From Candidatus Poribacteria bacterium (GTDB lineage: Bacteria > Poribacteria > WGA-4E > WGA-3G): a DNA stretch of 64,000 nucleotides. The notes under the pieces were generated by a model. The model saw nothing but the letters and a program-made list of their open reading frames with translations. It had not been told where the DNA came from and did not search any database. Where the stretch lies: assembly GCA_965205015.1 (NCBI GenBank), contig OZ242029.1:5408001-5472000 (forward strand), read 5' to 3'. The first letter of the stretch is position 1. The number at the start of each line of letters is the position of its first letter. Of the stretch, positions 17,741 through 27,255 are shown one piece after another. Position numbers and translations under genes: made by a program.

Positions 17741-18958
17741 TTACGCATCAATGGCGTGGCCGAATTTTTGGCGGTATTCGTCGTGGACCATCTGCTCATA
17801 ACCCGTCGTTTCCGTTATCGGGAGGTCGATGGGCATCATGCCTGTCCGTGAGGATTCGTATAGCGCGATACACATCTCCACATCTTTTCTGCCGCCGATC
17901 CCGTATTCCGGTGGTTCGCCTGTAAGTGCTGCCCTCGCTGTCGTCATAATCTCCTCAGCAGTGCCGACGTTCCAATCGTCTATCGCATACGTTCTGAAAG
18001 GATTTTCATAGGTAATCTGTGGGTCGGTATGCACAACGATTCTCGAAAGAACATCTACACCATCAACCTGATGTCGTTCCGTTTCGATTGGGATGTCTTT
18101 CATTTCACCGTTGACGAGGGCACGCAGCGGAAAATCGGCTGTCCAGAAATCAACGTCTGTGATCACACCCTTCGTTCCCATAATCTGTCTGTACTTAATC
18201 GTCTCCTCTCCGACTTGGGAGGTTTCATAGATCCCGACAGCACCACTTTCAAATTCAATGATTGCGTGTCCCCAATCTTCGTAAACGTTGTTGTTGGAAC
18301 TCGGCGCGAATTGCTTGGTAATTCCTGTAATTCTTTTCGGTTCGCTTTGGGCATAAAACCGAATCTGGGACATCCGATGAACACCCATGTCGATGCAAAC
18401 GCCGGAGTGGGACGTAAATGTTGAGATAGGAGATTCTATGCCGCGCGGCTTTCCGGCACCGTCCACAAACGGTCTACGTCCGAAAGGTTCGATAAAGTGA
18501 ACCCGCGCAATGTCACCAAGAATACCCTCCTGAATGAGTTTGATGATGATGCGATCCCCCGGCATCCGAAAATAGTTTTCGGCGACCTCAAAGTGAACCC
18601 CATTTTTTCTGCAGCTGTCTATGATCACATCACAACAGGCGAGGGTCGGTGCCATCGGTTTTTCAACGATCGGATGCATCTTGCGTTCAGCGGCGATCTT
18701 CGCGACTGTATGGTGTTCATAGTCACCGGTGCTGATGTCTACAACGTCGATGTCCCTGTGTTTCTCCAGCATCTCTTCGACGTCCGTATAGTACGGGAGC
18801 CCGTATTTTTCACCGGCTTCGCGGGCGGTATCCGCGTCTACATCGCAGACGGCGATGTAATCCAGATCCCCTCTTTTCGTCAATTCGGCGATTGTCGGCA
18901 GATGCCAGCGTTTCGCGACCCAACCGCAACCCACGGATGCAATCTTGGCTTTCCGCAT
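17741..18958 (-). CDS. Gfo/Idh/MocA family oxidoreductase
   Basis: VGCGWVA, VEKPMA, DMGVH. Confidence 0.9.
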   Translation of the reverse strand: MRKAKIASVGCGWVAKRWHLPTIAELTKRGDLDYIAVCDVDADTAREAGEKYGLPYYTDVEEMLEKHRDIDVVDISTGDYEHHTVAKIAAERKMHPIVEKPMAPTLACCDVIIDSCRKNGVHFEVAENYFRMPGDRIIIKLIQEGILGDIARVHFIEPFGRRPFVDGAGKPRGIESPISTFTSHSGVCIDMGVHRMSQIRFYAQSEPKRITGITKQFAPSSNNNVYEDWGHAIIEFESGAVGIYETSQVGEETIKYRQIMGTKGVITDVDFWTADFPLRALVNGEMKDIPIETERHQVDGVDVLSRIVVHTDPQITYENPFRTYAIDDWNVGTAEEIMTTARAALTGEPPEYGIGGRKDVEMCIALYESSRTGMMPIDLPITETTGYEQMVHDEYRQKFGHAIDA

Positions 18959-19002
18959 TCCTTGTCTCCTTCACTCTTACTAAACTACGGTTTCCTATTC
19001 TA

Positions 19003-19926
19003 ACCCAAGTTGCCAGTTAGTAGGTAGTTGTAAATCCATGGGACCTCCTTTATAGTGTTTTTATACATAAAAAACTCAAAGGAGTATCCCATGGACTTGA
19101 CTATTGTAGAAGTTTACACGATTTGTGACGACTTTTTAATCGCAGCAGGCCACCAAGAGCATCCCTTGGCTAAAATGTCAGATGCTGAAGTCATGACGAC
19201 CGCTCTGATTGCCGCAAGATACTTTGGCGGGAATCAACACACGGCTTGTGCCGCCTTGAAAACCCTTGGATATATTCCAAACATGTTAGGACACTCGCGA
19301 TATAATCGCAGACTTCATCGGATCCGTGGTGTGTTTCAAACGCTGTTTGAACACTTCGCAGAGATATTCAAAGCAGAGAATCCGAATCAGATTTATAGCA
19401 TTGATACGTATCCGGTTTCCGTCTGCGACCCCATTCGCATTTCACGCTCACGCTTGTATCAAGGCGAAGCCTGGCGAGGAAGGATCGCAAGTAAACATCG
19501 CTATTTTTATGGTCTCAAGGCACATCTGATGGTCACTGAAGCCGGACATATCGTTGAAGCGTTCTTCACACCGGGACGTTGCAGTGATGTGCGAGGCTTA
19601 CGGTGTTATGGGTTCGATTTACCGCCGGGAGCCGTCGTCTATGCGGATAAGGCGTATTGCGATTATGCCATCGAAGATGCTTTACAAGAAGCAAGGATTA
19701 CGTTGAAACCCTTACGCAAGAAGAACGCCAAGCGTCAATATCCACCGTGGGAAGTTTATCTGCAACACACCTATCGCAAGCGTGTTGAGACTTCAAACAG
19801 TCTCATTGAACAGTTGCTCCCTAAGTCGATTCATGCGGTGACCCCTGCTGGATTTGAGTTGAAGGTCTTTTTGTTTATCATCGCTACTAATATCAAACAA
19901 CTTTTTACATAGGTAGCAACTTGGGT
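19003..19926 (+). mobile_element. IS982-family insertion sequence, apparently intact
   Basis: Terminal IRs ACCCAAGTTGC / GCAACTTGGGT with flanks TATTCTA and TATTATA. Encodes one DDE transposase. Confidence 0.9.
19091..19912 (+). CDS. IS982-family transposase
   Basis: MSDAEVMT, YSIDTYPV, YFYGLKAHL, YADKAY, RKRVETSNS. ATG at 19091 after AAGGAG. Confidence 0.92.
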   Translation: MDLTIVEVYTICDDFLIAAGHQEHPLAKMSDAEVMTTALIAARYFGGNQHTACAALKTLGYIPNMLGHSRYNRRLHRIRGVFQTLFEHFAEIFKAENPNQIYSIDTYPVSVCDPIRISRSRLYQGEAWRGRIASKHRYFYGLKAHLMVTEAGHIVEAFFTPGRCSDVRGLRCYGFDLPPGAVVYADKAYCDYAIEDALQEARITLKPLRKKNAKRQYPPWEVYLQHTYRKRVETSNSLIEQLLPKSIHAVTPAGFELKVFLFIIATNIKQLFT

Positions 19927-20075
19927 TATTATAACACAAACACTGGGTGTCTGCAACTTTTTGAGGAGTGCCACCCGCCACCGAGCGACAGCATCTGGTA
20001 CGGGATGCACTGTTCGATGCGCAATTTCACCCGATCAAACGGCACCTGTGGCTGGGGTGGGAAAAAATCATCTTT

Positions 20076-21023
20076 CTATTGTGGATAGACATACAGATGA
20101 AACACATCGCCGGGCGCGATATCCTCACCCATCAGGCGCAAATCTTTCGATTGCTCCTGCGTGATGTCGACATGCTGGATATAGGCGTAATTCCCGCTAT
20201 AACGGAGGTCGGCGTGCGTGAACTCGATCCGCCGACCGAACCGGTTGCGGCGGTGCGGGGCAGAACGTTGCGTCCACGCGAGCCGAAACGCTGCTGGCAA
20301 CCCATCTTGGATGCGTTGACCCGCTGCTGCCCGCAATGTGAGACCGTTTACATCATAGGCAAGACCGGTAAGCGTGAGACTGTAGAGGCGTGTTGACCCT
20401 GACCAGAAATAGCCCGTCTCTGCGATTGCGGTGAACTCTACAGCGTCGTTGTGAGAGGGGTTCGCGCTCGTATCCGCGGGGATACTGCGCTCTACAGGCG
20501 TGTTGTCTATCGGTCTGCCGTCTGTCGAAGCGTTTTGATACATCAATGAGATTTCCCACGTGTTTTCACGCAACTTCAACGCGTCGGTAAAGATAAATCT
20601 GACGTTCTCGTGTCTGCCGACACCAAAACGCTGGAAATCCGATTCGTTTCGGAAGTTCAAAAAGAAGTAGATGAACTGCGGAATCCCGTTATGCGTCCAG
20701 CGGGTCGCATGGGGCGGGTGAGAGCCCGTGCTCAGGCGCACCCACCGATTCTCCCGTTCAGAACGTCTCACACGCCGAGACCTATACAAAACCTCACACG
20801 CTGCGAGTCTGAATTCCTCGCCGGCTATGTCGTCGATACCGACAGCGTGTTTCGCGGCATACGGAAAAATCAACTCGTCAATCGTGATCGCATCGGGCGT
20901 CCATGAGGGTGCAGCGGGGACAGTCTCATCAGTCAGTGGCAGGGTCCTATTGACAACCCCTTCGTCACCGCAGCCTGATAGCAATGTGATGAAAAAAAGG
21001 CACGTGAAAAAGTTGCGTAACAT
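20076..21023 (-). CDS. putative lipoprotein of unknown function
   Basis: MLRNFFTCLFFITLLSG-C lipobox and GGAGG RBS. Confidence 0.7.
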   Translation of the reverse strand: MLRNFFTCLFFITLLSGCGDEGVVNRTLPLTDETVPAAPSWTPDAITIDELIFPYAAKHAVGIDDIAGEEFRLAACEVLYRSRRVRRSERENRWVRLSTGSHPPHATRWTHNGIPQFIYFFLNFRNESDFQRFGVGRHENVRFIFTDALKLRENTWEISLMYQNASTDGRPIDNTPVERSIPADTSANPSHNDAVEFTAIAETGYFWSGSTRLYSLTLTGLAYDVNGLTLRAAAGQRIQDGLPAAFRLAWTQRSAPHRRNRFGRRIEFTHADLRYSGNYAYIQHVDITQEQSKDLRLMGEDIAPGDVFHLYVYPQ

Positions 21024-21181
21024 GATGTTGCCTCCAGTTCGGTTAGGGTGGGGGTTGTAACCTCACCTGTTGGGGTATTTCATGAGTGTGTTGCCCCGGG
21101 ATCTTCACCGCACATCGCACTATGCTGGGACGGGCTCAGATCGGTACTATCGTCGGGCACAGGCCCAGGGGTCAATATGTT

Positions 21182-21278
21182 CTTTCATATACGCACAGGT
21201 TCGATTAAAAGGTGGTGAAACGGCTTCTACAGATGCCGGAGGACACGCGTTTCAATTCCAAACGGGTTCAATGAGAAG
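21182..21278 (-). CRISPR. orphan CRISPR-like mini-array: repeat, 37-bp spacer, degenerate repeat
   Basis: Minus strand: CTTCTCATTGAACCCGTTTGGAATTGAAAC (30 bp, 21249-21278, ending in the ATTGAAAC handle), spacer 21212-21248, then CTTTTAATCGAACCTGTGCGTATATGAAAG (21182-21211, 20/30 identical). No cas genes in the window. Confidence 0.7.
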
Positions 21279-21309
21279 CCCCAAAGGCAATCTTTTAGAC
21301 GTATCCATC

Positions 21310-21504
21310 TCAAGATTTTCTATATTTTCGGATCAACGCCCCGATACCATAGCAGATCGGCACCCAGACAGCCGTTGCTATCAAATACATTGGCCATCTC
21401 TCAATCGAGTAGATGAAGCCAACAACCCATGTCACGATTGCAACCGTTTTCATCCATCTTTGCTTGAAGGCGACAAAAAGAACCACAGAAATCAGAAAAA
21501 TCAC
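21310..21504 (-). CDS. small hydrophobic membrane protein (64 aa)
   Basis: AAGGAG RBS before the GTG start, two to three hydrophobic segments and a basic C-terminus (RKYRKS). Confidence 0.55.
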   Translation of the reverse strand: MIFLISVVLFVAFKQRWMKTVAIVTWVVGFIYSIERWPMYLIATAVWVPICYGIGALIRKYRKS

Positions 21505-21570
21505 GCCAAAAAACTCCTTACGTGCTAAAGACGCTCGCGAAAAACGAGATTTATACAGGATTCGCCTGTC

Positions 21571-21655
21571 GCCTGCTAAAACCGCTTTCCACGGCGGTGG
21601 ATAGCACTCGCAACGGAGATTGTTGCGAGGTGGAAACGCTATCCAACAGGCTTAT
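21571..21655 (-). ncRNA. putative structured RNA with a three-way junction and pseudoknot
   Basis: P1 GCCUGUU/AGCAGGC, P2 GGAUAGC/GCUAUCC, P3 CUCGCAAC/GUUGCGAG, P4 ACCGC/GCGGU. The bulge UUUCCAC is complementary to the P4 loop GUGGAAA. It begins right at the predicted transcription start. Confidence 0.65.
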
Positions 21656-21660
21656 GTCGT

Positions 21661-21690
21661 ATTATACACTGTTTGCGGGGGAACCGTCAA
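21661..21690 (-). promoter_or_regulatory. near-consensus sigma70 promoter
   Basis: TTGACG-N18-TATAAT on the minus strand, with an A-rich upstream tract. Confidence 0.7.
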
Positions 21691-21705
21691 GTTTTTGTTT
21701 TATAA

Positions 21706-24700
21706 TCACTGATATGCTTCGTTGTCAAGTAAAGCCAAGTACAACTTATAGAACGCCACGCTTTCTTGAAGTCTCGATCCTGTTAACATTTCATGGAGAG
21801 AATTAATCAAACGTTCGAGAGACTTCGGATCATTCTGCGAACTGCGCAGACTTCTAAACACTTCAAGTGTTTGCTTCCTAAAGTTGTCAAATGCCACTGA
21901 ATTCTCAGCCAATTTTCCCCAATATTGTTCATCGTCAGGAAAAGATTCGATAATTCCACTATCTCCAAGAACATTGGTCGTTAACGTCCCAATGGGTAAA
22001 GCCCCATTTTCTTTCGGGCTAATATTCCCCACCGGTTTTATATGTTCAAAGTAGCCTGATACCTCCTGATTGATCGGGTGAAATAACTCCCGACAGGCTC
22101 GCCAGTGCAACTTTATCTCCTCCAACCGTTGGCTAAATCGACGTTCTTCCTCAATCGCATCCAAATCGAACTTATCAGAATTTTTATCAATGTGAACGGG
22201 GTCTTCATCTCCATTTCGATACCTATCCTGAGCTTTATCATAGGCTTCCTTGAGTTGCTTGCTAACAAGAATATCGTTAATGGTGTAGCCAGCTTCCATC
22301 AGATAAAGCACCTGGAGGCTTGGGACAGGAAAATTACCTTCGAATTCCGCTTGTGTTTTAAATCTCAAATCTTCGTCGTCATTCTCAGGTTGAGCAAAGA
22401 GATAGCGGAAAAGTCTTGTTGTGCCACCTTGTTGCTCGAATTTTAATCGGTAGTTCTCATAGTTGGGAGTGAATTCTTGATAAGGACTTGAACGCTTATG
22501 GGCATCCTTGTCAAAAGAAAAATTGGCAAAAGAAAAATTGGGCGCAACTTCATTAAAAGATTCTCTTAACATATCTCTTACAGCCCACTTGAAAGCATCA
22601 GGTTCAGCCCTGAGTAGGAGATCAATTAACTTTTCAAGCGGTGTTTCCGAAAGGACGCGCTGCCCTAAAACATGAGCTACATTTTTGTCTGAGAAATTGC
22701 GATCTGATCCTACAATTAAACCAAATGCTTGCTCGATAGCAGCGATTTCCGTTGCTACGTTGCTGAGTAAGCCATCAATCTCCGCCAACATACGCTCAAA
22801 AGTTATTGAAATCCAGTGATTAACGAGCCTATCATGATACTCCTGTTGAAGCCACTTCAGTGCCGGTTCAAGTTTATCAATATCAATAACGTCCCGATTT
22901 CGTTTATCCCTTCCAAAGATTCCTGTGCTAATCTCTTCAGTTGCAATAGCACCGTCCACGGCATTATCCGCATCTGTTTTGAGATTAGGATCCGCTGCAG
23001 AGTTCAACCCTTTCTGATTTTTTTCAATAAGGTTTTTAACCTCGCGAAGAAAATCTGACTTTGGCTTGAGTTGACAATACCCCTTGAGATTTCTCAACTT
23101 TTGGTCCAAGTCTTTACGAAATTGACGACGATACTGGTCACTATTTTTTTCAAAGACAGTACCATATGCTCCCTTAGGCGTCCATGAATGTAAATAAGAC
23201 TCAGCTTTCATCTTGGCTGTTTTGCGATCATGTGGATCAAATTTAGGAACGGAGGGGTTAATGGCGTCGTCGGTTTGAGAAATTTTTGCTCTTACATCGT
23301 CGAAAGAAACCAGTGTATTCGGGTCAGCAACACCACCTGCAGGGGGACTTTTTCTCCAGCGATCGCGAAGTATCCGAGTAAACCCTTCAACAGTAGAGGT
23401 AATGGTTGAATATTTAGGTTTCCCAGTGATCTCTACCCCAGAACTGAACATGTACTGGACAAATTCCCCACCCTGCCTCACTTGTCCAAAACGATAGTCC
23501 CGCTTTGGGACATTTGCAAGATCTGCTTCAATGCGTGCATCAATCCCAAGACTCCGAGCGAAGAGGTCCTTCGCTGCCATTTTACTAAGTTGTTCCCTCT
23601 CAAACAAACCTTCTGAGTTTACACAATTCCAGCTTTCCATATTGGTAGCAGAAAGGAATGTGGCAACGTGAAATGGGGCTTCGTATGTGTTAATGTAAGA
23701 ACCATTAGGGAACCGAACTTCATACCGCGTTTCAGGGCGTTTATAGTAGTCTAACTCAACGAGACTTGCGTAGCAGTTTGCTAACAAAATAGCCGAGTCG
23801 CCACCTAAAGCAAGTCCCTCATTATACATTGTAAAGATACCGTAAATTCGAGTATCCGCATTTCCGATGTGCCGGAAGTAATAAGCAATGTCCAACAACA
23901 TCCCGCTGCATGTTCCACCGCAGAGGGTTCCCACAAGAAACACGTTGTGTTTCTGATTATCAACATTGATTGCGCTATTGAAATGGTTCTTTAGAAATCT
24001 CTCGGCTTCGTTCTTATGATCTGGGTGTAAGAAAGCATGATATGCCTGAGTGAGTTTGGGTCTAACCGTATTATTCCATTTTTCCCAGAGCGATAAGCGC
24101 CCTGCCATTCGGAGGTTCCCGGCACCCGCACCCGCAAGCTTTACAGATTCGCTATCCAATATCCTTTTATCCAGCCATTTCGCTAGATATTTATCGTATA
24201 CCGGACTCTCTGGGTCTATTCTTTCACGGATCGGATCGGTATACGGGATAGATGTGTGGACAACATCATTAACTTCGTACGGCTTTGGCTTCAATCCTTC
24301 CTGAATTTTAGGGACGCCGCTTTCATACCAACCTTGAATACGATTCTCACCATCCAAGTGAAGATCTTTGCCATTATTCGTCTCATCGGTCTCAATGGAT
24401 ACATATCTGAAAATAGGAAGTCCTGCCTGTCCATATTCGTTAAGGTTAAGTTCCCGAAGATTCGTTAGAATTTCGACACCTGTTGTTCCTAACCCTACAT
24501 ACAACGTCGGTCTGATTTCCATATTCGCACCTCTATTTACAACGGACTTTGGGGCATTTTCAGAAGATGACTGCCCCTCTGCTTGTATAAAATTATCTTC
24601 TCCCAACACTGCTGTCTCAAATTGAAACTGTGTCATCGGTAAAAAACGACCGTCCCCTTGATTCTCAAAGTATTCCCAATGACTCGGACCTGCTTGCGTA

Positions 24701-25008
24701 TTGGCGAATATCCCATAACGCGTCGCTGTTACGTTAAGGTAAGCCTTTAACTGATCGGGACCGTCTCCGGTGACGCCCTCCCTCTTGCACTCTACAATAA
24801 CATCAAGAAGGACAGGAGGGCTTTTGCCTATATTTTCAGCCTCGATCCTATTTTTTTCCGCAATCAGCACAACATCGGCAGACCCTCGAGAACTAAAACT
24901 CTGAATTTGATGTTCGCACTTGGAATAAAAATCCCTGAATTTGGGTTCATTGAAATAGTTTACAACAACATCAACGACTTTAGCTTCCAGAGGCAGTTTC
25001 TCTTTCAT
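21706..25008 (-). CDS. PD-(D/E)xK (HsdR-N-like) nuclease fused to a divergent tubulin/FtsZ-like GTPase (Tubulin_2/FtsZl1 type) with a helical C-terminal region
   Basis: N-terminal SADVVL...IVECKR...QLKAY...YGIFAN. Tubulin-like PTLYVGLGTTG, SIETD, GAGAGNLRMAGRL, GTLCGGTCSGMLLDIAY, ANCYASLVEL. Visibly more AT-rich than neighbouring genes. Confidence 0.8.
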   Translation of the reverse strand: MKEKLPLEAKVVDVVVNYFNEPKFRDFYSKCEHQIQSFSSRGSADVVLIAEKNRIEAENIGKSPPVLLDVIVECKREGVTGDGPDQLKAYLNVTATRYGIFANTQAGPSHWEYFENQGDGRFLPMTQFQFETAVLGEDNFIQAEGQSSSENAPKSVVNRGANMEIRPTLYVGLGTTGVEILTNLRELNLNEYGQAGLPIFRYVSIETDETNNGKDLHLDGENRIQGWYESGVPKIQEGLKPKPYEVNDVVHTSIPYTDPIRERIDPESPVYDKYLAKWLDKRILDSESVKLAGAGAGNLRMAGRLSLWEKWNNTVRPKLTQAYHAFLHPDHKNEAERFLKNHFNSAINVDNQKHNVFLVGTLCGGTCSGMLLDIAYYFRHIGNADTRIYGIFTMYNEGLALGGDSAILLANCYASLVELDYYKRPETRYEVRFPNGSYINTYEAPFHVATFLSATNMESWNCVNSEGLFEREQLSKMAAKDLFARSLGIDARIEADLANVPKRDYRFGQVRQGGEFVQYMFSSGVEITGKPKYSTITSTVEGFTRILRDRWRKSPPAGGVADPNTLVSFDDVRAKISQTDDAINPSVPKFDPHDRKTAKMKAESYLHSWTPKGAYGTVFEKNSDQYRRQFRKDLDQKLRNLKGYCQLKPKSDFLREVKNLIEKNQKGLNSAADPNLKTDADNAVDGAIATEEISTGIFGRDKRNRDVIDIDKLEPALKWLQQEYHDRLVNHWISITFERMLAEIDGLLSNVATEIAAIEQAFGLIVGSDRNFSDKNVAHVLGQRVLSETPLEKLIDLLLRAEPDAFKWAVRDMLRESFNEVAPNFSFANFSFDKDAHKRSSPYQEFTPNYENYRLKFEQQGGTTRLFRYLFAQPENDDEDLRFKTQAEFEGNFPVPSLQVLYLMEAGYTINDILVSKQLKEAYDKAQDRYRNGDEDPVHIDKNSDKFDLDAIEEERRFSQRLEEIKLHWRACRELFHPINQEVSGYFEHIKPVGNISPKENGALPIGTLTTNVLGDSGIIESFPDDEQYWGKLAENSVAFDNFRKQTLEVFRSLRSSQNDPKSLERLINSLHEMLTGSRLQESVAFYKLYLALLDNEAYQ

Positions 25009-25039
25009 AAGTATCCTTCACCTTTATTTACTAAAGTTT

Positions 25040-25967
25040 ACCTAAGTTGCCACTAATCTTCAAATTGCATTTTTATATTTGTGGCGATAAGAAATAAAAA
25101 CAGTTTCAACTCAAATCCGTGGGTCTCCGTCACGGCGTGGATGGACTTGGGTAAAAGTTTTTCAACCAGACTATTAGTCACTTCAACGCGTTTCCTGTAA
25201 CGCTGCTGTAAGTATACTTCGTGAGGTGGATACTGACGCTTTGCATTCTTCTTGCGCAAGGGTTTGAACGCAATACCGACATCACCGAGGGCATCTTCAA
25301 TGGCATAGGTACAATAGGCTTTATCGGCATAAACCACCGATCCTTGCGGGAGATCAAACGTATAATATCACATGCCTACAACATCGTTGCATCCGCCCGG
25401 AGTGAAGAACGCTTCAACGATTTCACCCGTCTCGGAAACCCTCAGATGCGCCTTCAGTCCATAGAAATGCCGGCGTTTGCTGGCGATCTTGCCTCGCCAT
25501 GTTTCGCCTTGATACCGGCGACACCGAGAGATACGGATGTTATCACAGACGACGACAAGAAAGGTATCCACCGAATAGATATTATTGATGTTCTCGGTCT
25601 TCGCCGTTTCAACCAACTGTTCAAAGAGCGTCTGAAACAGCGGTCTGATCCGATGAAGTCTACGATTGTAGCGAGAGTGTCGAAGCATATTTGGAATATA
25701 TCCCAGCGTCTTCAAAGCAGCGCACGCGTTTCGGTGGTTGCCTGCGAAGTATCTCGCCGCAACGACTACCGTGGTCATGACTTCAGCATCTGTCATCTGT
25801 GTTTGTGGATGCTCTCGATGTCCGAGTGAAATTAAAAGATCGTCACAAATCGTATAAACTGCTACAATAGTTAGGTCCATGGGAGACTCCTTTGGTTTTA
25901 TCGTGATGTAAAAACTATAAAGGAGATCCCATGGATTTACAACTTTTTTATAGGTAGCAACTTAGGT
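25040..25967 (-). mobile_element. IS982-family insertion sequence with an inactivated transposase
   Basis: IRs ACCTAAGTTGC / GCAACTTAGGT. Homologous to, but diverged from, the copy at 19003. Right flank TATTCTA. Confidence 0.88.
25053..25880 (-). pseudogene. IS982 transposase with an in-frame premature TGA
   Basis: ORFs 25368..25880 and 25053..25337 share a frame (VGM*YYTFDLPQGSVVYADKAY). The stop aligns with an Arg codon of the intact copy. Confidence 0.88.
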
Positions 25968-26043
25968 TATTCTACAAAAGAGTGAACAGGCTAACAGCCT
26001 ATTCTACAGCAAATTGTCCAAACTATAGTCACTCTTAATGATA

Positions 26044-27255
26044 TTACTGAGGGGGTCGTATTTTCTCAGTCAATTCTTCGTCAACGGTGATTGCCAGATG
26101 CCCTTGGGGTCCGACCATCTTATTTACCATAATTGACTCAAGTTCTTTATGCTCAAGGGCAGTCAGTTCCTCTGCCAAGGGACTGTTGATAAAGTCTTTA
26201 TAGGGACGACTTGTATCCATAAACGGCATGATGTACATCGGAATGACCGCCTGCAACATCGCTGCTCGCTTATGTGGCGTGCGATTTACACCTGCGCGAT
26301 GCCAAACCCGAGAATCGTAGACGATGTAACTCCCCGGTGGTGCCTCAACGACATCGGCATCCGGTCCGGTGTATGGCAATCCTTTGGACTCACGGTGTCC
26401 GTCCTGCCTTGAGGTATTTCCGTTTACCCACTCGACGGGTGGACCTTGACCGAATGTGTGGGATCCGAGTTTGAAACAGGTCGCCCCGTTTTCCTTACGA
26501 AATTCCGAGACGCAGAGGTTTCGTTGGACTCCCATGACCAAGCCATCAACTTGGTGAATCGGGATTCGGTTGGCAACTTCACTGCCGGCAATACCCCAGA
26601 GATAGGGAAAATCTGAGTGCCACCCTTGAACTTTCCGTCTGCCATCGTCGGGTGGGAGGATTGCAAAGCCTGGCGAGTGGCCGAGACGGATTTCCTGCGT
26701 TCGCATGTACTGACGCATCAGCCATAAGGAGACGGGTTCTGTCGCAATTTTCGCAACCGCTGCAGTCTCATTCAGGGGAGGCATACGTCGCTCGTAAGTG
26801 TCTTCTTCCCAGCGACCCGTGCAGCTCACCCGTTCCAATTCTTCGACAATATCAGGTGCGATGATGGAGGGGAGGCAGGCCCATCCGTTTTGCTCGAATG
26901 ATTTTAGGTATTCGGAGGGCAGATGTGCGGGACCATGTCCTGCAGAAAACACAGCACCTTCAGATGCTATGCTGCCATCCTCCATAAGCAGAATTCCTTT
27001 ATGACGCAGGTAGCAGCCATCTTTAACATCAGCGGGTTCCGCTTCGAGTTGGATTCCGGTAACGACATGACGATAAGTATTGCTGCCTTCAACCTGCTCC
27101 CATATTGCATCATCGTCAACATAATGAAATATTGAAAGTTCGTTGATCTCGGATACACCAAGAAAATCGCCATCGGGGTTCCGAAGTAGTGTAAAGTGCG
27201 CCGACGGCTTTTCAACCCGGACAACGCGTTCCTGAAACATTTCGTCTTTCACCAT
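26044..27255 (-). CDS. phytanoyl-CoA dioxygenase (PhyH) family Fe/2OG oxygenase
   Basis: GWHSDFPY, NGAT...GSH, YDSRVWHRAGVN...R. Confidence 0.85.
   Translation of the reverse strand: MVKDEMFQERVVRVEKPSAHFTLLRNPDGDFLGVSEINELSIFHYVDDDAIWEQVEGSNTYRHVVTGIQLEAEPADVKDGCYLRHKGILLMEDGSIASEGAVFSAGHGPAHLPSEYLKSFEQNGWACLPSIIAPDIVEELERVSCTGRWEEDTYERRMPPLNETAAVAKIATEPVSLWLMRQYMRTQEIRLGHSPGFAILPPDDGRRKVQGWHSDFPYLWGIAGSEVANRIPIHQVDGLVMGVQRNLCVSEFRKENGATCFKLGSHTFGQGPPVEWVNGNTSRQDGHRESKGLPYTGPDADVVEAPPGSYIVYDSRVWHRAGVNRTPHKRAAMLQAVIPMYIMPFMDTSRPYKDFINSPLAEELTALEHKELESIMVNKMVGPQGHLAITVDEELTEKIRPPQ

Follow-up and report, generated by a model that had tools for sequence, protein, structure and literature searches.

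The window analysed here, 64,000 nucleotides (nt) of a contig from the sponge-symbiont bacterium Candidatus Poribacteria, holds a gene that encodes a protein of 1100 amino acids (P0001) in which a predicted nuclease domain of the PD-(D/E)xK type is joined to a GTP-binding domain of the tubulin/FtsZ fold and a long C-terminal region. P0001 is a member of the FtsZl1 (Tubulin_2) family that carries an HSDR_N_2-type domain, and this fusion of a nuclease with a tubulin-like GTPase is an undescribed combination within a known family. FtsZl1 has been known from sequence since 2010, and the literature searched reports no experimental study of it. A member with an enzyme of its own would offer a simple read-out, DNA cutting, for the activity of a tubulin-like switch, and the whole candidate system is one gene that could be moved into a laboratory host.

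Domain architecture of P0001

The N-terminal domain (N-domain, residues 1-135) matches the Pfam family HSDR_N_2 (PF13588) over residues 30-105 with E = 0.0048 and 17.4 bits. Since this is below the cut-off of 25 bits, the nuclease assignment of P0001 rests on its relatives and on its predicted fold, not on its own Pfam score. Precomputed matches to PF13588 exist for 22 of the 25 fused homologues described below, that is, for all except P0001 to P0003. The clade of these three proteins has a 13-residue insertion between D45 and E73 that the other fused proteins do not have, and this insertion is probably the cause of the weak score of P0001.

When modelled separately (residues 1-145 of P0001, with an alignment from 50 relatives), the N-domain is predicted confidently (predicted local distance difference test, pLDDT, 91.5; predicted template modelling score, pTM, 0.85). 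The model shows a restriction-endonuclease (REase)-like core of alpha-beta-beta-beta-alpha-beta order, made of a helix at residues 7-19, strands at 27-37, 40-50 and 70-74, a helix at 83-94 and a strand at 98-102. The catalytic candidates are D45, E73, K75 and Q86...Y90. The second core strand bears D45, the third has E73 and K75 in it or just past it, and the helix after the third strand bears Q86...Y90. No variation is seen at D45, E73 and K75 across the 51 aligned sequences, and almost none at Q86 and Y90.

REase-like structures are the best Foldseek matches of this model (3ijm, 9y1l and 1wdj; probability 1.00, E about 1e-3). In an exhaustive structural comparison by VIA, seven chains reach Z ≥ 8: 1wdj (Z 10.7), which we take to be an REase-like protein, an HsdR fragment (3h1t, 9.3), 9y1l (9.2), BpuSI (3s1s, 9.0), 3ijm (9.0), 3ot2 (8.8) and DrdV (7lo5, 8.5). 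All seven are restriction enzymes or REase-like, six of them as judged by their titles. Holliday-junction resolvases, Cas4, Can2, NucC and the EcoR124I HsdR (2w00, Z 6.1) come next, at Z 5-6. By sequence, the only match of the N-domain among PDB chains was Card1, which is not significant (E = 0.063), in an alignment that covers D...ExK. As modelled, the N-domain has a PD-(D/E)xK nuclease fold with the full catalytic signature and is a putative nuclease.

The middle domain matches Pfam Tubulin_2 (PF13809) over residues 169-465, with E = 7.7e-39 and 134.4 bits against a cut-off of 27, and the match covers profile positions 1-280 of 356. Three nucleotide-loop motifs are present: GLGTTG (172-177) and GTLCGGTCSG (360-369), presumably T1-like and T4-like by comparison with the motifs of tubulin and FtsZ, and a T3-like GAGAGNLRMAGR. 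With the full-length model of P0001 (pLDDT 67.2, pTM 0.50), Foldseek places CetZ2 at the top, followed by CetZ, FtsZ, TubZ and tubulins (probability ~1.00, E 1e-3 to 5e-2). VIA aligns about 270 residues with alpha-, beta- and gamma-tubulin, BtubA and CetZ at Z 17-18 and a root-mean-square deviation of 3.5-3.9 Å. These model comparisons indicate that the middle domain is a true tubulin/FtsZ fold, and GTP binding is predicted. A search of the family sequence profile against PDB chains found nothing for the tubulin part and weak coiled-coil-type matches (E 0.15-0.72). As no PDB chain was found with this profile, we take it that no FtsZl1 structure has been solved. A complex prediction for a pair of chains of residues 163-560 with GTP returned no answer (score 0.00, mark 0.42), which counts neither for nor against self-association.

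The C-terminal region contains long model helices at residues 532-552, 595-665, 710-825, 896-982 and 1027-1099, and consists of two variable regions, C1 and C3, with a conserved block, C2, between them (Table 1). Mean pairwise identity is 0.72 in the N-domain, 0.68 in the tubulin-like domain (residues 163-490) and 0.60 in C2; at 0.45 each, C1 and C3 are the two least conserved parts. Between P0001 and its closest relative, P0002, C1 is 70% identical and the conserved parts are 94-97% identical. C1 is a candidate sensor or coiled-coil spacer. The C2 block is common to other Tubulin_2 proteins, as seen in phmmer matches, and the VIA alignments to tubulins run from model residue 165 to about 950. 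C2 may complete the tubulin fold after a long helical insertion, in a part of the full-length model that is of low confidence (pLDDT below 50 across residues 823-909). Elements that were reported in 2010 as missing from FtsZl1 might sit after this helical insertion of about 300 residues. By their Atlas features, residues 560-1100 lie closest to Tubulin_2 clusters (score 0.82), which serves only as a lead. A word search with the C-region alone gave P0001, P0002, P0003 and P0005 only; it was limited to the 8000 candidates sharing most words and is uninformative on other architectures.

The motifs named in an earlier, sequence-only reading of this DNA are all in the translation, at D45, E73-C74-K75, Q86-x-x-x-Y90, M163, G172-LGTT-G177, G293-AGAGNLRMAGR-304 and G360-TLCGGTCS-G369. 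That reading's assignment of the first three to an HsdR-N/RecB-type nuclease is supported by the intact D...ExK...QxxxY pattern on a confident REase-like model; the nuclease fold, whose absence it had named among the findings that would refute its interpretation, is present in the model (pLDDT 91.5, Z up to 10.7). Its tubulin-like domain agrees with both the Tubulin_2 match and the tubulin/FtsZ fold of the model. Of the two Pfam families it had suggested looking for, Tubulin_2 was found well above its cut-off and HSDR_N_2, for P0001 itself, below its cut-off, while the structure prediction and Foldseek search it had suggested gave an REase-like N-domain and a CetZ/FtsZ/TubZ-like middle domain. 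The several hundred helical residues it had placed after the tubulin-like domain number about 570, mostly helical. The gene is also AT-rich, as it had said: GC is 0.432, compared with 0.502 ± 0.016 for the window minus the insert described in the last section, and a GC this low does not occur in any of the 269 windows of 3303 nt taken outside the insert. The end of an insertion sequence (IS), which it had placed 31 base pairs upstream, lies at 25040, and 31 nt (25009-25039) separate it from the ATG of the gene.

Table 1. Positions in the window of the gene for P0001, its predicted parts and the features around it
Feature	Position	Strand	Basis
Whole gene P0001: nuclease domain, tubulin-like GTPase and helical C-region	21706..25008	-	Open frame, 1100 aa
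PD-(D/E)xK (HSDR_N_2-type) nuclease domain, aa 1-135, predicted	24604..25008	-	Predicted fold, catalytic motif, relatives
Linker of low confidence, aa 136-162	24523..24603	-	pLDDT <50 at 137-162 in full-length model; mean pairwise identity 0.56
Tubulin/FtsZ-fold GTP-binding domain (FtsZl1 / Tubulin_2), ~aa 163-530, predicted	23419..24522	-	Pfam, fold, motifs
Variable helical region C1, aa 561-830	22519..23328	-	Long model helices; mean identity 0.45
Conserved block C2, aa 831-950 (SSPYQEF...GG..R.FRYL...Y.MEAG)	22159..22518	-	Mean identity 0.60
Variable C-terminal region C3, aa 951-1100	21709..22158	-	Helices and small beta unit; pLDDT mostly 70-90
Shine-Dalgarno-like AAGGTGAAGGA, purine-rich	25014..25024	-	Read from sequence; ends 5 nt before ATG
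680-nt spacer downstream of gene	21024..21705	.	Between lipoprotein ORF and gene
315-aa open reading frame (ORF), lipoprotein-type signal (LLSGC), GC 0.549	20076..21023	-	Translation
IS982-family element A, intact 285-aa transposase (19055..19912)	19002..19927	+	NCBIfam NF033520, terminal inverted repeats
IS982-family element B, transposase pieces 25880..25368 and 25337..25053	25040..25968	-	NCBIfam transpos_IS982, Pfam DDE_Tnp_1_3
ATTCT, possible target-site duplication, copy 1	18997..19001	.	Directly outside element A outer end
ATTCT, possible target-site duplication, copy 2	25969..25973	.	Directly outside element B outer end

The fused family and its nuclease module

We searched for homologues of P0001 among 5.8 billion protein clusters. 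Among 8000 that were scored, 158 reached E ≤ 1e-3, and the best 120 listed were sorted by phmmer with three parts of the protein as queries. The fused form (N-domain, tubulin-like domain and C-region) is found in 25 of these 120 clusters, which are 40-86% identical to P0001 over 98-100% of the query. Another 20 are orthologues without the N-domain (N-less), which start at the tubulin-like domain and keep the C-region. The other 75 are Tubulin_2 proteins that share the tubulin-like domain; 20 of them also share a short block corresponding to about residues 834-930 of P0001. Residues D45, E73-C74-K75, Q86, L87, Y90 and F101-A102-N103 of the N-domain are invariant in all 25 fused proteins, and so are GLGTTG (172-177), G293/G295-AGN-298, R300 and GTLCGGTCSG (360-369) of the tubulin-like domain. 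Because it recurs in 25 of the 120 listed clusters, the fusion is a family and not an assembly artefact, and it is not unique to this assembly, a possibility that the first reading had itself raised.

An alignment scan of prokaryotic genomes, one for each species, found 15 loci, of which seven, including the best two, are in metagenome-assembled genomes (MAGs) of Candidatus Poribacteria. Among these loci the fused form occurs in L001 only, and L002 has the N-less form. Two of 175 genomes from the phylum of L001 have a match beyond the tubulin-like domain (G001, fused; G002, N-less), and the distribution is thus sparse; in a further three the match, at about 1e-103, is confined to the tubulin-like part. 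Among named records, the clade of P0001 is found in Poribacteria only. Single-protein scans of genome-contig and metagenome-contig collections returned no close relatives, and the 16 loci from an alignment scan of metagenome contigs are all matches to the tubulin domain only.

Fused and N-less forms are intermixed in a tree built from the part that they share (50 rows, 967 columns). The presence of the N-domain on this tree needs 5-6 changes, and the well-supported branches force at least 4-5, so that there were at least 4-5 gains or losses of the N-domain. One apparent N-less form, P0032, was rejected as a truncation, as it is identical to fused rows and comes from a contig of 2988 nt. At L002, a tblastn search with six N-domains found no remnant of the domain upstream of the gene, and L002 is a genuine N-less gene. 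The YraN (UPF0102) gene upstream of this copy was considered as a split-off nuclease and rejected, as tblastn with the six N-domains showed no similarity; adjacency of rnhB and yraN is common. Right after the N-less L002 gene, a 142-amino-acid frame (L038, G002:C1:2294021-2294410) matches profile residues 395-531 with E = 3.3e-45 and appears to duplicate the tubulin-like domain in part.

As the confidence of the N-domain is low within the full-length model, its relatives were searched separately, with a profile built from nine N-domains against 1.84 billion representatives. This gave 376 matches at E ≤ 1e-3, 212 at ≤ 1e-10 and 89 at ≤ 1e-30. The 376 carriers are 92 to 1116 residues long, with the domain at the start, in the middle or at the end. 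Among the 100 best relatives, 97 match HSDR_N_2 (E ≤ 1e-3, best 4.3e-12), and the families found with or over the module include tRNA_anti_2 (an OB-fold, 20 proteins), HSDR_N (14), TPR families (about 11), tRNA_anti-codon (10), HHH_3 (5), DprA (2) and Macro (2).

The closest relatives of the N-domain outside the fused family (P0121, P0123-P0128, P0131, P0132, P0139 and P0162) are proteins of 600-1030 amino acids in which the N-terminal module leads into several membrane helices with coiled coil on both sides of them. The bodies of these proteins have no Pfam match and no similarity to P0001 beyond the N-domain, and the group is, judging by its sequences, a putative membrane-anchored nuclease family. 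P0121 and the fused protein P0011 have N-domains that are 91% identical over 124 residues; for P0123 and P0027 the identity is 81%, and for P0122 and P0021 it is 79%. Identities between the N-domains of fused proteins range from 40 to 96% (median 69%). Identities of up to 91% between such proteins show that the module moved recently between unrelated scaffolds, and the nuclease module is a swappable cassette; such swapping is known from the effectors of conflict systems. Further copies of the N-domain, in frames of 189-451 amino acids and some with internal stops, occur in two Poribacteria genomes (L039-L043; G001 and G003), which indicates that the module is multi-copy within genomes.

Known systems and the possible function of the fusion

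FtsZl1 proteins were described by Makarova and Koonin 2010 (PMC2875224), in whose accessible text an FtsZ-like domain is joined to a coiled coil and a helical C-domain; four planctomycete members have an N-terminal protein kinase, and operons with vWA, GTPase, kinase and OmpA genes are typical of most members. P0001 is like these proteins in its divergent FtsZ/tubulin GTP-binding domain, its extended coiled-coil/helical C-part, its sparse distribution and the occurrence of N-terminal fusions in the family. It is unlike them in that its N-terminal partner is a predicted PD-(D/E)xK nuclease and in that it has no vWA, GTPase, kinase or OmpA neighbour. Santana-Molina et al. 2023 (PMC9871819, accessible text) equate Tubulin_2 with FtsZ-like proteins, which have irregular N- and C-terminal extensions. 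The word 'nuclease' occurs neither in the accessible main text of PMC2875224 nor in that of PMC9871819, and we found no description of a nuclease-Tubulin_2 fusion in the literature searched, where the supplementary architecture tables of PMC2875224 and PMC7159879 might mention one.

Tubulin homologues have also been placed in GTPase-centred, nucleoside-triphosphate (NTP)-dependent conflict systems, for which REase-fold effectors are listed (Kaur, Burroughs, Iyer and Aravind 2020, PMC7159879, accessible text). P0001 shares with these the tubulin homologue in a predicted NTP-dependent system with an REase-fold effector. As far as the accessible text describes them, however, those systems are multi-gene, with separate GTPases, HSP70 or vWA proteins, whereas the effector of P0001 is fused and has no partner gene. 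A paralogue locus in a Poribacteria genome (L004:10007-19500, + strand) has a 1043-amino-acid Tubulin_2 gene, then a second Tubulin_2 frame (ORFs of 287 and 561 amino acids) and next a 1164-amino-acid Hsp70/MreB-like protein with Ig-like domains, among unannotated genes. This locus looks like the tubulin-plus-HSP70 conflict system outlined in that article (PMC7159879, accessible text).

The restriction enzymes HsdR, BpuSI and DrdV resemble P0001 in the fold and D...ExK...QxxxY motif of the N-domain and in the combination of a nuclease and an NTP-driven domain in one chain; P0001 differs from them in having no superfamily 2 (SF2) helicase or methylase domain and in that its nucleoside triphosphatase (NTPase) is a tubulin-fold GTPase. 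TubZ, which binds DNA via a separate adaptor, TubR, is likewise a tubulin-fold GTPase on mobile DNA and is among the Foldseek matches; unlike P0001 it has no nuclease, no partner gene is found at P0001, and sequence similarity between the two is undetectable by the family profile, which finds no PDB chain. STAND and Avs proteins are built from an N-terminal effector, a central NTPase and a C-terminal sensor, and recognition makes them oligomerise (accessible text of PMC13581612, PMC13601566 and PMC11897194). Their likeness to P0001 lies in the N-terminal effector, the central nucleotide-dependent module and the variable C-terminal region, and also in the single gene, the effector swapping and the horizontal mobility. 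The NTPase of P0001 is, in contrast, of the tubulin/FtsZ fold and not a P-loop STAND module (Pfam at E ≤ 1 gives Tubulin_2 and HSDR_N_2 only, and no STAND domain), so that this is a likeness of logic, not homology. P0001 is not a member of the STAND, HsdR or tubulin-HSP70 systems.

We propose, as possible rather than probable, that P0001 is a single-chain effector-NTPase-sensor protein that works like the Avs/STAND sensors, with the tubulin-fold GTPase as its switch. A trigger, for example a component of a phage or of some other invader, would be sensed by the variable helical region. The tubulin-like domain would then self-associate in dependence on GTP and so gather the nuclease domains, which would cut DNA. 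The trigger, the self-association, the control by GTP, the cutting of DNA and the role in defence are what we infer. We favour this Avs-like mechanism because of the order of the parts, the intact sites, the cassette nature of the module, the uneven conservation along the protein, the absence of partners, the patchy distribution, the mobility and the context of L001. A fuller version, in which the tubulin-fold GTPase is the oligomerisation switch of a one-protein immune sensor whose assembly activates the fused nuclease, and the cassette is exchanged among the scaffolds of sponge symbionts, is in our judgement doubtful; it would make P0001 the first immune effector built on the tubulin superfamily, an independently arisen functional analogue of STAND/NLR proteins. 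If the defence role is true, the effector-NTPase-sensor design would extend to a second, unrelated NTPase fold. If it is wrong, a tubulin-fold protein would still be linked directly to DNA, and a nuclease cassette would still be passing among unrelated scaffolds in an uncultivated symbiont phylum.

The genomic context was readable at three places, the window, L001 and L002, and 10 ORFs were scanned at each. None of the three has a vWA, GTPase, kinase, OmpA or Hsp70 gene among these ORFs, and no HsdM or HsdS gene is found among the neighbours in the window. At L001, the fused gene is preceded by a Hypoth_Ymh gene and an AAA_35 ATPase, and the gene of an XPB-type helicase (PbeA model, 2.5e-54) begins before the fused gene ends. 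After the helicase come a DUF790 protein, three AAA_35 ATPases, a TPR protein and a methylase-Mrr fusion. This neighbourhood looks like a defence island. The statement of the sequence-only reading that the gene stands without the usual partners thus agrees with all three contexts, as its nuclease fold, tubulin fold and fusion agree with the results above; its further step, to a defence system, is a possible one, with no match in PADLOC and only one of three readable contexts resembling a defence island.

Several observations weigh against the sensor-effector proposal. The protein matches no PADLOC system and no NCBIfam model, and only three contexts could be read, of which L002 is a housekeeping neighbourhood, with ffh, ylqD, trmD, rnhB and yraN preceding the gene. 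The N-domain of P0001 alone falls under the Pfam cut-off, and the full-length model is of middling quality. Elements used by FtsZ filaments were not found in FtsZl1, whose polymerisation was left open (PMC2875224, accessible text). The fast-evolving segments may be just loosely constrained coiled coil. The L001 copy (L001:9992-13249, + strand) has an in-frame TGA in place of R868 (RLF*YL), a residue invariant in 25 aligned homologues, which is either a recent nonsense mutation or a read error of a long-read MAG. Finally, 20 of the 120 listed clusters are N-less, at least one of them (L002) genuinely so, which argues that the core has a function that needs no nuclease.

These N-less orthologues bear on a different explanation, which we regard as unlikely: P0001 may be a non-immune cytoskeletal or scaffold protein, with an FtsZl1 core that forms a structural or membrane-linked assembly and an N-domain that either anchors this assembly on the chromosome or processes DNA in the course of repair, segregation or organisation of the nucleoid. 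The housekeeping setting of the N-less L002 gene is consistent with such a role, as are the coiled-coil membrane proteins that are the closest relatives of the N-domain and the OB-fold, HHH and DprA partners, which are general DNA-metabolism domains. The family was also first linked to membrane remodelling (PMC2875224, accessible text). However, just 2 of the 175 genomes from the phylum have full-length orthologues, the insert that carries the gene is absent from relatives, gains or losses of the N-domain number at least 4-5, and one copy is broken by a stop. Being sparse, insert-borne, subject to N-domain turnover and broken in one copy, the gene has the features of an accessory rather than a housekeeping gene.

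The spread of the N-domain over many unrelated scaffolds, sometimes in nearly identical form, would also fit a domain that is not catalytic but serves in recognition or as a homotypic adaptor, bringing the protein to DNA or to proteins with the same domain, with the output lying elsewhere, for example in assembly of the tubulin part. In this spread the N-domain resembles adaptor domains of conflict systems (PMC7159879, accessible text), and inactive REase domains exist in Pfam, one of which (NA-iREase1) is on a neighbour at L001. We consider such an adaptor improbable, as the constancy of D45, E73 and K75 in 51 sequences, with Q86 and Y90 almost as constant, is the pattern of an active site and not of a degenerate one. 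Least probable is that the gene is selfish cargo of a mobile element, a nuclease addiction or exclusion module or a TubZ-like DNA-partition protein: it does lie between IS982-family elements with ATTCT at their outer ends, relatives have empty-site contigs and the tubulin-fold TubZ is among the structural matches, but there is no antitoxin-like or centromere-binding partner (the only other ORF is lipoprotein-like), the L001 and L002 copies have no flanking IS in the ORFs scanned, and the two IS elements are just 71% identical, with one transposase broken.

The insertion-sequence-bounded stretch

The gene lies in a stretch bounded by IS elements A and B, beyond which are sugar-type oxidoreductase and PhyH-type genes. 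The transposase of element A scores 170.1 bits against a cut-off of 130. The two pieces of the element B transposase score 101 and 42 bits, and its frame is cut by one in-frame TGA (25368-25370). Much deeper contigs in the sequencing runs X1 and X2 read G and not A at 25370, which gives CGA on the coding strand and indicates that the element B copy is a degenerate member of a multi-copy IS. Terminal repeats are seen, and the two elements are in inverted orientation. The ATTCT repeat outside them is weak evidence, as it is five bases long and ATTAT also follows element A. With elements only 71% identical to each other, their sequences do not establish movement of the stretch of 7.1 kilobases (kb) as one unit.

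Within the stretch, the 315-amino-acid lipoprotein-like ORF has no Pfam or NCBIfam match and no match in any fetched locus. Its GC of 0.549, compared with 0.432 for the neighbouring gene, points to cargo of mixed origin. The spacer holds, 200 nt downstream of the gene, an ORF of 64 amino acids (21310..21504, - strand) that contains two or three hydrophobic segments and is preceded by a promoter-like TTGACG-18-TATAAT (21690-21661); as no homologue was found, it is probably not a gene. Both ORFs were considered as partners of P0001 and rejected, since neither matches any fetched locus. A promoter scan found none between the IS end and the ATG of the gene, and 11 sites overall, compared with 8.2 ± 3.5 in shuffles. 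Rfam gave no match in 18900-26100.

Ten runs contain the stretch or part of it, and no RNA run is listed among them, which counts neither for nor against expression. We compared the contigs of four public runs with positions 18500-26500 of the window. In two runs, probably including the source sample, contigs identical to the window span 19802-25228 and 19733-25809, a range that takes in the gene with its two IS junctions. In X1, a diverged contig joins 18960 to 26060, and two contigs of X6, a sponge metagenome from another study, join 18970 to 26029 and 18978 to 26045. These contigs skip 7058-7099 nt and join the flanks directly, which indicates that relatives have the flanks without the 7.1-kb stretch. 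Another X6 contig, of 10,566 nt, carries the gene region (21613-25018) with 235 differing letters in 3268 aligned (~92-93% identity) and continues for about 7 kb upstream of the gene without element B. Parts of the lipoprotein-like ORF were almost uncovered in X6, which is not read as absence. Together, the empty-flank contigs and this X6 contig indicate that the gene is accessory and is found at different sites in related organisms.

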